Shown here piece by piece: positions 3,612 through 60,399 of a stretch of 64,000 bases of DNA. Numbering within the stretch: the first letter of the stretch is position 1; every line of letters begins with the position of its first letter. The notes beneath the pieces were generated by a model. That model had not been told where the DNA came from and did no database searches. It saw nothing but the letters and a program-made list of their open reading frames with translations. The translations under genes were made by a program, and so were the position numbers. Source of the stretch: Octopus sinensis (Eukaryota); assembly GCF_006345805.1 (NCBI RefSeq), contig NC_042999.1, forward strand, positions 131,316,001 to 131,380,000, read 5' to 3'.

Positions 3612-3889
3612 CTGAATAAGAGAGTCATCTTTATTTTTTAGTAATATAACCATAAGAACATGTGTGTTTCTATGAGTGTATCTCTTTACTGAAAGACACG
3701 TAAATGAAATAGATGGTCATCATTGAATACAATAGACAACAAATGAAATATACACATGTAGAAATATATATATATATATATATATATATCATCATCATCA
3801 TCATCGTTTAATATATATATATATAAGAATTTTTTGCGTAATGAGATAAAAAACCAAGGCTGTGTAGATATTAGAACATTTATAGATAG

Positions 3890-3938
3890 GTCTTACAGCT
3901 GTTTCCAGGATATTTATTAATATCCCTTCATCAGAGAC
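3890..3938 (-). ncRNA. Minimal type-I hammerhead ribozyme motif (Penelope-type)
   Basis: GTCT-CTGATGA-AGGGATATTAATAAATATCCTG-GAAAC-AGCT-GTA-AGAC: intact core, stem I GTCT/AGAC, stem II GGATAT/ATATCC, palindromic stem III. Confidence 0.8.
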
Positions 3939-3970
3939 GATGTGAGAAGGTGGTTAAGTCCTCTCACACC

Positions 3971-4022
3971 GTCTCCGATGAAGGGATATAATTAATAAAT
4001 ATCCTGGAAACAGCTGTAACAC
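3971..4022 (+). ncRNA. Degenerate hammerhead, opposite arm of the same fold-back
   Basis: GTCT-CCGATGA-...-GAAAC-AGCT-GTA-ACAC; core U>C change and broken stem I. Confidence 0.6.
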
Positions 4023-54600: not shown

Positions 54601-57600
54601 CTCAATCCCATTTCTTTACATTATTACCAATCCCAAAATTGTAATCTATAATAACAAACAAGAAATTCTGTCTGTGTGGGACCCCTGTATCTCAGTATAC
54701 ATTTGCTCTACATAGACATATTATACTTTTTTGGAATCAGGATGATCCTGGGATTGACTATCTGCCCTTCATTTAGTTCTTGAACAACCAGCATTGGGAT
54801 CAAATTTAAAAGCATTTGGAATGCTATTTCTAGCAGGTAAAGCTTGTCTGATTCACATCATCTTGGTTGGGGCTTGTCAGATGATGTCAGAGATTTTATA
54901 TTGAGATAAAAACTTTGGGACAAATTGGCCAACAGTTGGAATTTAACTTGGGACTGGAACAATAGAATGATTGCATTACAGAATAAATTCTCATCCGTCC
55001 TTAGCTTCTGATCAGACACCACCAGGGCATATAGTCATTACAGACATATTATAATCATGCTATTTAGCTCTTTTTAGTTTTGGGCTACAGGCTCAATTAG
55101 CCCTATGCAAGAGCTAGCCTAAAAGTCCACACAGAGTGTGGCTCTTAAGCTAGTTATTTCATAAGTGGTTTCTGGAATATAACTAATAGAAATAAAAAAT
55201 ACATTTAAACAATTCTAAATATGAAATATAGAATAAATTAATAAGTGGAAATAAAAATTGCTTTAAATAAATAAATATATAGATAAATAAATAAATAAAT
55301 AAATATATAGATAAATAAATAAATAAATCTCAGATTCTTCATATTCAGATGGCATGGTGATAATTATTCAGTTTCTTTGCTACTGAATAAAGTAAGATCG
55401 GATAAAATTTAAAGCTCACATGAAGTTGACAATAATAACTTAATGTAAAGATTATAAACTGATGTAATTAATTGTATAAAACAGCCAGAAAAGGAAGTAT
55501 TGACTGATAACTGCAATTAAATAAAATGAAATGGTTTATAAAAAGGTGGTGGTGAAACAAAATCTCCAATAGCAAAAAGAAACCTAAATTGAAAATATCA
55601 AACAATATTTTGATCACCAGTTTATACAGAGAAATGAAAAACTGGTTAATCTTGCACACAAAGAGTATGTATTTTTACTAAAACCGCACTTGCATTTCAC
55701 ATATGTGTGCTTTTTGAAATAATCTTGCAAACATAGCAGTACAGTAGTAGTCTGTTTTCAAACTCATACAAGAGGCTTCGATAGCATCTTCTCTTAAACT
55801 GCTTCAGACAAATTCTTTTCAAAAACTTTTGAAGCGCTTATTTTATTCATTTTCACTAGCTACTCACTAAGCACTTCCCGAGTAACTCTGCTATTTTTTA
55901 AATAGCAAAATCATAGAACTGACACATTATGAATCAAACAAGAAGGTTGATAATTTATATTCTACAATTAAACCAATTCATGGTGATTAATGAAGACAGT
56001 AAACAAAATAATGAGGGCACTGGAATATTTCATATTACGTGGTAAATGGGGAGAGAGGTAATTTAATCTAACAAGAAAATTAAGAGATACTTTTTATTTT
56101 CTTTTATGAGCAGGAACTAATATTTGCACTTCCAGGTGGATTGTGTCAGTGTTGCACTTTACTAATCAGTACAAAGCAAAAGCTGTCTAAAAGAAGCGAA
56201 AATAAAGACACAAGCTAATAATGATAATAAGCAATAGGAGCAAATAATTGTGGAAAAAAAATGAAAAAAAATTAACATGGGCAAATAAAAAGACACTTTA
56301 AAGCTAGAAATAAAAATAGACACTTTTAGAGATGTAAATAATCATATAAGCTATAAAAGAAAAATATGAAAAAAAAAAAAAACTCTAAAACCTAAAATTC
56401 TTGAAATTTTTTTTCATACAGTGCAAGATGAATTGTAACTGTAAAACAATATTCCTAAGAAAATAATATAAAGTTCATGATTTATAACTTGTAAATGAAT
56501 CAAATTTGGGCATAAACTTAATTGTCTTAAATATTTTTCATTTTTCTCAAAATTAAAATGAGTTACAAAGAACAATAGATTAGCTTAAATAATATGGTCA
56601 TGAACAGCTTTTATTATTGTGGTGTTATCAGTTGCTCTAGTTTTTCTACAGCTGACGGACCAATAATTTGATGTTATCTGCTTTGAAACCAGCGGATATA
56701 ACCTGTTCAGGCCATCATGAATATTTTGGCAGGGATCTTCAAATACTAAGTCTTCAGAAAGACAGGTTATTAAAGAATTGAAGATAGAAGAATGAGATTT
56801 CTACTTTTCCCTTGCATTTTTTTTTCTTGCCTTAGCATCTCTTGTGCATTGATCTATCAAAGGAGCTTTGATATACTGTAAGTAGTTAATATGAATATAG
56901 TTACTAAATCTTTGAGTATACAATCACACAGCCATGGACTACCAATGCCATGAATTAGAAGGTCACAGCATTAATCCATAAGAAGCTGAGAATATCAACA
57001 AAATATAAATAATTCTAAATGTTTAACAAAAATTTAAAAAATAAAATGAAATGATGTATGAGAGATAAACATATGACCTGGAGTTCATTCACTAAAAAGT
57101 TTTGAAAAATCTAATTTCCTTATTCTGATAGTTGATTAGACTTGTGATTGTAAAACAGAAGTTTATGTAGAGATTAATTTGACATTTGAGTTAATTTGAT
57201 ATACATTTAATTGAGCTTGTAAAATAGACTATATTGACTATAATAATAATGATGATGATGATGATGATGATGATGACGACGACGACGACGACGACGACAA
57301 TTATAATCTTTTCTACTATAGACACAAGGCCTGAAATTTGGGGTTGGGGGCAGAGCCAGTTGATTACATTGAGCTCAATACTCAACTGGTACTACTTATT
57401 TTACTAACCCTGAAAGGATGTAAAGCAAAGTTGACCCTGGCAGGATTTGAACTCAGAACATAAAGACAGATGAAATGCCACTAAGCATTTTGTCTGGCAT
57501 GCTTACAATTTTGCCAGCTCACTGCCTTGCAGCAACAGCAGTAGCAATAATAATAATAATAATAATAATAATAATAATAATAATAATAATTATAATAATT

Positions 57601-60159
57601 ATAATAATCCTTTCTACTATAGGCACAAAACCTGAAATTTTGGGAGAGGGGTTAAGTCGATTACATTGACTGCAGTATTCAACTGATACTTAATTTATTG
57701 ACCCCAAAAGGATGAAAATCAAAGTTAATCTTGGTGGAATTAGAACTCAGAATCTAGTGACAGGCAAAATGCGGCTAAGTATTTTGTTTGGCATGCTAAC
57801 GATTCTGCTAGCTCACCACCTTAATAATAATAATAATAATAATAATACAAAAAAAAAAATATTATTATAAACTTCTTCCAGTAATTGAGAGTAATTCATT
57901 ATCACTGTTTTATTCAACTGATTAACTTGTTTCTCCAGTGTTTGATATAACATTAAATGCTACAAAACATTTTTTATAATATATGCTTTACAAATCAAAA
58001 AAAAAAAACTTACAAATTTCCATTTTCATCAGAACTAAAATAATTATTAATAACTATTAAATTTGGTCCATAACATCTATTAACTTGTTCAATCTTAAAG
58101 CTTAAATATATGAACTGTCACATTTATATTTTTACATCTGTATTTTTATGGGTTGATCAGGTCTGCAAAATGTCCCATCTTAAGTATTCCTTACCATCTT
58201 TTTTTTTCTTTTCAATTTTAACCCCCCATACACTATGTTTTTTGGAGGTAATCTTACTAACTAACACTAAACCACTTAACTTGCTTAACTGGAATGATTT
58301 CACAAGAATTATATTAACACAGAATTTTTGTTTTTTTCTAATCATTCTAAGAATCCATGAAGAGGCAGAGTTAGAGCAAAAGAAAAGGATAGAAAAAATG
58401 GAGGCTTATAAATATTTGAAACCAGAATACATCTTAAAAAAAAATTCCACTCAGCAACTTACAGATTATAAAAGAATCAAATAAGAATGAAAGATATATA
58501 TTACAAAGTAGAAATAATAATTTACTTTAGTAATGATCATATCCTTTGAATTTTGTCTCCTTAGATCTGAAACATGCCTCAGGTTTACCTAAAATATGCT
58601 CATTTCCTAGTCACTGCACCTACTGTCCTTTAATATAATCACATTAACACTAATCTATGAATCATACACATCTTGACAGTAAAAGGAGTAAAAATTTTAA
58701 AGTTCAATGAACATTTCTCTGATTTACAATAACATATATACTAGCAGTAACAATATGGGTTTGAGTAACTGAATTTCTTTTTATTATTTATTAGAATAAT
58801 AACTTAAAGAAAGGATATTCCTAACTTCAATATGAAATATCTATCTATATATGTAACAAAATTATTTTATATAATTCACACAGTTATTAATAATTATTTG
58901 GAAAAAGAAAAAAAATATCCTAAATACCATTTAGGAAAGACAATTTTATATCACTGTGTCTTACTTTCTTTGAGGAAATTGAAGATTATTATAATAAAAT
59001 ATGATAATAAACAAATCAAAGGCTTGTGAGGAAGGTAGTCTCTTATTATTGCTGCTGTGTTCGAGATGATAAACATACAAATATTTATAGAAGTGTCAAT
59101 TATTGAGAAGGCAAGAGTGGCAGCAGGCAGAGAATAAAAGTGCTTAAGTATATACAATTACAAGCATCATACTGGTGGGTGAATGGTGCTGAAATAGCCA
59201 TGTGCCCAACAGAGACAAAAGCAACAAAGAATGGAAGAATTATCACAAACATAGGTAAGTATCATTGTCAAGATGAAATATTTACAATGAAAATGGTATC
59301 CACATTGCTTAGTTGAGGTAAGCAAGAGTAGAAGAAAAAAAAAGAAAAAGAAAACTCAAAGACCAGAACAGCACGACCTCCTTTGAATCATTCATACCAT
59401 GCATATGTCAAACATTTTTCACATACAAGATAATTCAATATATATAATTACAAAAATACACTATATTATAAACCTAAAAGACATTACATATTCTAGTGCA
59501 AGCCAGTAATTAGTCTGGTATATATATATAGTAAGTAGCTTGCTTACCAACCACATGGGTCTGGGTTCAGTCCCACAGTGTGACACCTTGGGTAAGTGTC
59601 TTCTACTATAGCTTCAGGCCGACCAAAGCCTTGTCATTGGATTTGGTATATATATATATATGTATATATATATATATATATATATATATATATATATATA
59701 CCAATTGCTAAGAATTTTTGAAATTATTTTATTACCCCCTTGTGCTTGTTCTTTCCCAACTATTAACTGGGAATAATAAAAGCAGTAATTGTATAGGCAA
59801 TTAGTGCTCTAAAAAGGATTAACTTTCCTGGTTATCTCTAAGACTAATGCACCAAAGTTTGGAAAGGCTTTGGCCATTGTAACTGCTGAATATATTAACT
59901 AATTTAGAAAATATAATCTGAGATATTAACAATCTCTGCAACTCCAGCCCTGTTACTGTTTTTCCTTTACAAATATTGGTCTACTGATACTCAAGTAGAA
60001 CATCTGTAAAGGCTATGAACATGTCAACTCTTCCTTGACTAAATAATATTGATGAAAAAAAAAAAAAAAAATTTTCAATATATACATATATTCACACATA
60101 CAATCAAACAGGCTCCAAAGAGACTTGTTAGTCTGCATCAGTTAGACTTGTATTATTTC

Positions 60160-60399
60160 GTAAAAACTGACAAAAAAAGTAGGGTGAACTTGCCATGAGG
60201 AATGGAAAATTCAATGTTTCAGACAGAGTCCTTCTTCTCAGGGATAAGATAACAGGAGTGAAAAGATAGACAGAAGAGTGTTACATCTTCACTTGCCTCT
60301 TTAATTTCACTCCTGTCATCTAATCCCTGAAGAAGGACTGTCTGGAATGTGGGATTTTCCATTTGCCATGGTAACTTCACCATACTCTTGTCATTTTAC
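60160..60399. mobile_element. Fold-back cassette with a degenerate HHR in each arm
   Basis: Plus: ATCC-CTGAAGA-AGGACTGTCT-GGAATGTG-GGAT; minus: ATCC-CTGAGAAGA-AGGACTCTGTCT-GAAACATT. Confidence 0.65.

Follow-up and report, generated by a model that had tools for sequence, protein, structure and literature searches.

Background

Insertions of Penelope-like elements (PLEs) that are truncated at the 5' end, carry an inverted truncated copy at that end and lie in (TA)n targets have been described, together with a tail of 30-40 bp that is often present at a single end (PMC8557442). Minimal hammerhead ribozymes occur as dual motifs on opposite strands, 100-700 bp apart, and those of metazoa act as dimers (PMC4209133). 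In vitro, the PLE protein of an anole cuts and extends both strands, with two start sites that delimit the tail; the protein uses uncut RNA, and ribozyme cleavage is dispensable for insertion in that system (PMC11167929). The role of the PLE ribozyme in vivo is unsettled; no cut ends were seen in the anole RNA-seq data of the same article. A further form of the hammerhead, type SGC, is a non-circular permutation that cleaves in vitro; it came from a search of RefSeq 85 and environmental data, and, according to that article, none of its RNAs was placed in the genome of a known organism, save for one GCS candidate (PMC10085705). Here we describe six palindromic fold-backs in a stretch of 64,000 nucleotides of the Octopus sinensis genome (NCBI RefSeq assembly GCF_006345805.1, contig NC_042999.1, positions 131,316,001 to 131,380,000 of the forward strand), hereafter the window, in whose coordinates all positions are given. 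We consider it quite probable that each fold-back consists of two 5'-truncated 3' ends of a dispersed repeat, joined head-to-head when a PLE reverse transcriptase (RT) primed on both strands of a cut (TA)n target, and that one of the repeat families, E, is a tandem unit without an open reading frame (ORF) that carries a predicted self-cutting SGC hammerhead. The new element in this picture is the SGC permutation, which we predict in a repeat family of an animal genome and for which earlier reports are confined to environmental RNA (PMC10085705).

Results

The genome is a 2.72-Gb AT-rich animal genome, and the window is rich in (TA)n arrays and dispersed repeats. All six fold-backs that had been noticed in a preliminary description proved to be real: comparison of the window with itself by BLAST recovers each of them (E-values 4e-119 to 1e-30, arm identity 76-88%), and alignment agrees. 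We name the cassettes by repeat family, from the start positions first assigned to them, as A (3828), B (4796), C (20201), D (42749), E (44511) and F (60160); fold-back A (3828..4073) is typical in that self-BLAST and alignment resolve it into two 5'-truncated 3' ends of family A, head-to-head. The fold-back first placed at 44511-44896 is present but extends further, over 44437..44971. Searches of the octopus genome for copies of the six families returned 1941, 1752, 1236, 1424, 1801 and 34 candidates (1752 for family A), of which 34-40 loci per search were scored. The copies have a fixed 3' end, mostly running into (TA)n, and variable 5' truncation points; most of the 3' flanks printed lead into (TA)n or related repeats, as judged by eye without a background count. 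With a single arm as the query, head-to-head pairs account for 0-52% of the other loci, namely, 2/29 in family A, 14/27 in B, 11/28 in D, 0/29 in E and 7/28 in F, where some pairs are weak; the counts leave out two loci of B whose only match was to their own stem II, one locus of D that was a partner arm and a duplicate locus of F. The corresponding figure for family C, 18/36, is biased because the whole palindrome served as the query, and a sample of family E anchored 3' of the ribozyme shows an inverted partner at 15/74 anchor hits, with some pairs counted twice. Among the pairs inspected, the central junctions are all different, apart from one duplicated locus. Private non-CpG variants are held in common by paired arms at 13-25%, versus 1-10% for unrelated copies, an excess consistent with arms that derive from one template, or underwent conversion later, and then decayed separately. 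In family B pairs, both arms mostly stop within ~25 nt 5' of the core, and B single arms stop over a wide range.

What the preliminary description had overlooked is a family-specific extension, or tail, that adjoins each window cassette past one arm only. The tail follows the right arm on the plus strand in families A (4074..4190) and D (42981..43050), and the left arm on the minus strand in families B (4715..4790), C (20055..20198, ~150 nt), E (44391..44440, where it is the start of the next tandem unit) and F (60100..60158). Among 52 other pairs there are 42 with a single tail, 10 without any and none with two, where 8.5 two-tailed pairs would be expected if the tails were independent (p=1e-4). 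An independent sample anchored on exact tail patterns of families A, C and D gave an inverted partner at 42/71 loci and no tailed partner among the 42, so that over these two partly overlapping samples 0/94 pairs are two-tailed. Among single arms, 18/96 are tailed and 78/96 are not. Most tail-bearing copies belong to inverted pairs and most copies that lack a tail stand alone, so inversion is apparently coupled to use of the far start site.

Taken together, the repeats show a fixed 3' end with variable 5' truncation, an inverted 5'-truncated copy, a tail at a single end and a microsatellite or AT-rich target; partial head-to-tail tandems were seen in family E, and none was shown for A, C and D in the 71 tail-anchored loci. 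Such fold-back architecture is already published as PLE architecture, and the cassettes are likely to be ordinary by-products of PLE insertion rather than elements of their own. By analogy with the anole protein in vitro (PMC11167929), the PLE enzyme would nick and extend both strands of the (TA)n target, one arm starting at the far site and acquiring the tail, the other starting at the near site and remaining tail-less, with the two sites delimiting the tail; the two short cDNAs would then be joined by their truncated ends, and the arms would decay mostly independently thereafter. The fixed 3' ends, the variable 5' ends, the differing junctions and the one-sided tail support the earlier suggestion that a (TA)n break received two insertions in opposite orientation, which were joined by their 5' ends. 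It had also been held that unique junctions, combined with arms that map to a known PLE pseudo-long terminal repeat (pLTR), would mark the cassettes as insertion debris; the junctions are indeed unique in every copy inspected, but the arms mapped to no known pLTR or ORF-bearing element.

Opposed priming appears the likely origin of the fold-backs. An unlikely alternative, although the best of those that we weighed, is that the cDNA started at the far, tail-proximal site folds back and copies itself until the TATA-like border of the tail anneals to the (TA)n target. Such a snap-back would explain at once why a pair has exactly one tail, why paired arms hold private variants in common, why arm lengths are often similar and why TATA-like sequence, which we find at each tail border, is located there. 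Nevertheless, single arms without a tail outnumber every other form (78 of the 96 single arms), so that the near end exists without a fold-back; some pairs are very unequal (for example, -230/-6 and -123/+14); and the majority of variants are not common to both arms. Three observations weigh against opposed priming by a PLE enzyme itself. No arm family is linked to an RT ORF (the full unit was reached for family E only), so the assignment to PLEs rests on architecture; a three-armed family C locus (L015) has tails at both outer ends; and the tails, at 45 to ~150 nt, exceed the published 30-40 bp.

The PLEs of this genome were surveyed in parallel. A tblastn search of the cassette-family loci with three PLE proteins detected only neighbouring or opposite-strand fragments; a PLE ORF beside a family E copy (locus L155) was considered as a partner and rejected as unlinked, the two being convergent. 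The genome carries young ORF-bearing PLEs of 775-784 aa that, by eye, appear to combine an RT, a zinc finger-like linker and a GIY-YIG domain, as in the Neptune/Nematis type; Pfam gave only a sub-threshold RVT_1 match for a fragment. Among 20 ORF-bearing loci, 5 show an equivalent 5' inversion, on a scale of 0.7-1.7 kb, and none matches the cassette arms; two ORF-bearing families have hammerhead-like boxes in the 3' repeat. The ribozyme-like cores of the young PLEs have the CCGAAGA or U3-A8 form. Upstream of the RT ORF, these PLEs carry a further ORF of ~450 aa, unlike the elements of PMC8557442, which are described as having a single ORF.

Family E is an ORF-less tandem unit of 0.7-0.9 kb, represented by six full units of 686-879 bp, in which no match to a PLE protein was detected and the longest stop-free frames span 91-181 codons. 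In full-length copies, one strand of stem III is followed by an NUH site, a stem I strand, 5-6 nt, a stem II strand and GAAA, and then by the other stem III strand, ~16 nt, the other stem I strand, CUGAnGA, an extra A and the second stem II strand. This is the S-G-C order (cleavage site, GAAA, CUGAnGA), which is no circular permutation of types I-III. In the window, blocks G and C of the predicted SGC hammerhead are located at 44708..44752 on the plus strand (GAAA at 44712; core at 44742, with U4A) and, in the left arm, at 44665..44708 on the minus strand (core at 44675). The order CUGAnGA-stem II-GAAAC-palindrome-GUH, previously assigned to most of the cassettes, fails for this one, in which GAAAC stands ahead of CUGAUGA. 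Both arms end ~10 nt short of the predicted cleavage site, so that block S is absent from the window copy. Genome-wide, the exact pattern of blocks G and C has 3,816 matches and its reversed control has none; a very strict de novo SGC scan of 750 kb gave 3 matches versus 0, 1 and 0 in shuffles, and exact SGC patterns had no match in metagenome and viral contigs. A query that covered part of a unit plus flank was matched in part by assembled contigs of four organisms, none on record as RNA. Young copies match the query at 95-96% identity; among 25 of these, 7 cross the unit junction as seamless partial tandems, and 5 carry a 45-nt tail that equals the start of the unit.

The S, G and C blocks pair through stems I-III, as judged by covariation. 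Across 28 copies from five subfamilies, picked by eye as intact, 92.8% of 415 cells are paired, compared to at most 51% in slid registers, and changes on both sides are seen in 7 of the 15 pairs (3 in stem I, 1 in stem II and 3 in stem III), with the catalytic boxes unchanged, and likewise the extra A that follows the core, as the stems covary. For held-out subfamilies, predictions were written beforehand from the 3' strands. Block S is present in 14 of the 21 motifs; of the others, six have their truncation point between GAAA and the site, and one is a fold-back junction. In the 14, 136 of 140 stem I and III pairs hold (128 of them Watson-Crick), a level that was reached in 0/5000 strand swaps. 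We therefore regard the SGC pairing in family E as likely, indeed highly so, to be real. Several caveats must be set against this: the 28 rows are hand-picked and related by descent, and kinship inflates the shuffle test; the 14 held-out copies are those of the 21 that still have block S and were chosen by eye; two blind predictions (G at 2.1 implying C at 1.1) came true merely as a U-G wobble; stem II is just 3-4 bp long, G-U pairs included; and a possible further helix of 4-5 bp with wobbles, which would link stems I and II at their far ends, can be drawn by eye but is not part of the count.

It is somewhat more probable than the contrary that the predicted ribozyme of family E cleaves in cis. 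Covariation is blind to the distinction between cis and trans, and the blocks could pair only across two units or molecules, S and C of one with G of another, which would restore the conventional SCG junction in a swapped dimer; the tandem arrangement of E units, the dimeric action of metazoan minimal hammerheads (PMC4209133) and the self-complementarity of the stem III strands in several E subfamilies all speak for such a dimer. We nonetheless hold it to be improbable because the stem III strands are non-palindromic in one large E subfamily and the linkers, 5-6 nt and ~16 nt, suit the SGC layout of PMC10085705.

If the ribozyme is active, cleavage would trim multimeric E transcripts to unit length, possibly to circles; copies made from cut RNA would end slightly before the cut, and the partial tandems would come from RNA that is uncut, multimeric or circular. 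In 73 family E copies sampled through a motif ~145 nt 3' of the predicted site, 22 of the 55 remaining copies stop in the first 33 nt on the 3' side of the predicted cut, as opposed to 3/33 for the 33 nt that follow (p=0.0014) and 3/58 for the 32 nt that precede the cut; both window arms terminate in the same zone. This edge is likely to reflect run-off of reverse transcription at the 5' end of cut RNA. The main competitor here, to which we give as little credence as to the swapped dimer, is that the pairing is a conserved non-catalytic structure, or the relic of a dead ribozyme, at which reverse transcriptase stalls. In its favor, stem II is weak, the ends of families A and B also cluster near their ribozymes, without a sharp edge, and PLE insertion in vitro does not depend on ribozyme cleavage (PMC11167929). 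However, all catalytic boxes of family E, and the extra A, stay fixed while the stems covary, and the ends lie at the 5' side of the fold, a point by which most helices would already have been opened, and become fewer at the predicted cut. The run-off interpretation has its own difficulties in the other families: tail-anchored copies of family A have raised end rates on both sides of the cut (10/28, 5/18 and 3/13) with no sharp edge, ends in family C amount to 5/15 and then 0/10, which is suggestive but a small sample, and in the pairs of family B the ends are concentrated 5' of the core. Because the pile-up of ends is not unique to family E, structure-linked stalling may contribute.

Run-off at a cut end remains our preferred explanation, and on balance we lean slightly towards a broader proposal drawn from these genomic patterns, namely, that family E is a recently active animal retroelement lineage of several thousand copies whose monomer-cleaving, pseudoknotted SGC hammerhead cuts multimeric RNA to give templates of unit length, which may be circular, the cut being recorded as the sharp edge of 5' truncation. 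Family E would then provide the first example of a non-circularly permuted ribozyme in the genome of a eukaryote, one that probably arose independently from a minimal hammerhead of PLEs.

The other five families differ in this respect, their majority sequences having a core, stem II, GAAAC, a palindromic stem III, an NUH site and a short stem I, which is the minimal type-I hammerhead of PLEs. The bodies of the cassettes are mostly unrelated, as first described, but families A and C have identical stem I, core and stem III. Similarly, the outward-pointing hammerhead boxes reported for the cassettes are recognizable, by eye against the family majorities, in 11 of the 12 arms, but only 1-2 of the 12 hold an intact hammerhead of any kind. 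All type-I features are retained only by 3934(-) and, with a mismatch in stem II, by 20336(-), that is, in just 1-2 of the 10 window arms of families A-D and F. A strict scan for a type-I core with a palindromic stem III did find two motifs, both in 3828-4073 (mean 0.017 and maximum 1 in 60 shuffles); the Rfam scan of the window had no hammerhead among the matches listed (150 of 155), which otherwise comprised low-complexity microRNA matches and one tRNA.

The intact motif of cassette A lies at 3890..3944 on the minus strand (core at 3934, palindromic stem III, GUA site), and its counterpart at 3965..4022 on the plus strand has a damaged stem I and a CCGAUGA core, the majority form of the family; stem I or III is broken in 3975(+) and 20395(+). 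In fold-back B (4796..4982), both arms are cut just 5' of the core, so that the 5' strand of stem I is largely gone, and the plus-strand core (4899) carries G8A. In fold-back C (20199..20534), the core at 20336(-) is near intact and that at 20395(+) has a broken stem III palindrome; in fold-back D (42749..42980), the plus-strand core (42860) is mutated (A6G) and the left arm is truncated within the ribozyme; and fold-back F (60160..60399) is old, with decayed minimal type-I hammerheads at 60241(-), which has a core insertion, and 60327(+), which has a broken G box. Blocks are lost to truncation in 4879(-), in the left arm of the 42749 cassette and in both arms of the 44511 cassette.

Folded as RNA, each cassette forms one long hairpin (-110 to -234 kcal/mol) in which 5-7 of the 7 core bases are paired in 10 of the 11 core-bearing strands, and a transcript, whichever side it starts from, contains only one sense ribozyme, which lies in the 3' half and is preceded by its own antisense. 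Because the hairpin pairs up the core and few hammerheads are intact, the earlier likening of the cassettes to ambisense viroid-like rods fails. That the palindromes are elements in their own right, either viroid-like or similar to miniature inverted-repeat transposable elements, is very improbable and largely refuted, as the frequent pairs in some families (14/27 in B) and the B junctions clustered just 5' of the core are outweighed by junction sequences that are all different, asymmetric ends, abundant single arms that in places form the majority, cores that are mostly mutated and paired within the hairpin, and an antisense core box in 0/6 full family E units. On our reading as insertion by-products, the fold-backs are predicted to be dead ends.

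Other features of the window

Alignment revealed four additional fold-backs, at 6550-6735, 13587-13682, 15406-15747 and 24107-24197, in which a regular-expression search for hammerheads had no match. The one at 15406-15747 is a seventh fold-back of like build, from a family with 304 candidates, several paired loci and a fixed end at (TA)n; the majority sequence over the arm of this family shows no hammerhead core. Fold-back 6550-6735 bears a short re-inverted end, and 13587-13682 is a 96-bp near-perfect palindrome that terminates a repeat with 63-bp tandem units, the same repeat that flanks cassette B (5022-5396). A tRNA match that passes the Rfam gathering score (36 bits) is located at 15799-15869, inside the inverted repeat 15479-15973, between its arms. 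On the plus strand, a decayed GIY-YIG-like PLE fragment (25861-26058) lies ahead of a 257-bp tandem, at 26326-26868, that belongs to another TA-flanked repeat; on the minus strand, 28754-31338 holds decayed frames of the kind found in long interspersed nuclear elements, RT and endonuclease-like. Two open frames on the minus strand, 39811-40464 and 48363-48728, are rich in proline and serine and resemble host exons, with no significant Pfam match, so the cassettes probably lie in introns of the gene to which these frames belong.

Relation to known systems

By themselves, the fold-backs are known PLE debris. They resemble inverted PLE insertions (PMC8557442, Fig. 2; PMC4209133; PMC11167929) in the 5' truncation, the inverted 5' copy and the tail at one end, and further in the microsatellite targets, the minimal type-I hammerheads with a palindromic stem III and the motif pairs on opposite strands within 100-700 bp; they differ from the published insertions in that the arms have no linked ORF, the tails are longer and the one-tail rule has been counted. 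The counted rule predicts that each strand has one start site in the PLE system in vitro, and the truncation edge of family E may serve as a genomic read-out for the role of the PLE ribozyme in vivo.

Family E also resembles metazoan non-LTR (long terminal repeat) retrozymes and non-autonomous PLEs (PMC7229834; bioRxiv 10.64898/2026.07.22.740005; MRC1 in PMC8557442) in its ORF-less head-to-tail tandems with one hammerhead per unit. Unlike these, it has units of 0.7-0.9 kb versus ~300-400 bp, occurs mostly as truncated monomers and has a predicted SGC rather than a type-I ribozyme; a placement among non-LTR retrozymes with a type-I hammerhead in each tandem unit was considered and rejected given the SGC order.

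Our literature search, which mostly covered papers outside subscription and these in part, yielded no genomic or eukaryotic SGC ribozyme. The origin of the SGC permutation was left open in PMC10085705; family E offers a graded series of subfamilies through which this origin can be traced. Since type I-III descriptors miss the SGC order, permuted hammerheads may be hidden in PLE-type repeats that have been described as hammerhead-free. The likeness of family E to the type-SGC RNAs (HRIMA-1 and variants, PMC10085705) extends to the S-G-C order, the full core, the crossing of stems I-III as pseudoknots and the short link between stems I and II. As compared with the published RNAs, stem II is weak, the linker between stems I and II is 5-6 nt versus ~3, and cleavage is predicted; the extra A after the core is a feature that family E has in common with the minimal hammerheads of PLEs and not with the published SGC RNAs. 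Above all, unlike those RNAs, family E resides in the nuclear genome of an animal, in a retroelement, and in thousands of copies.

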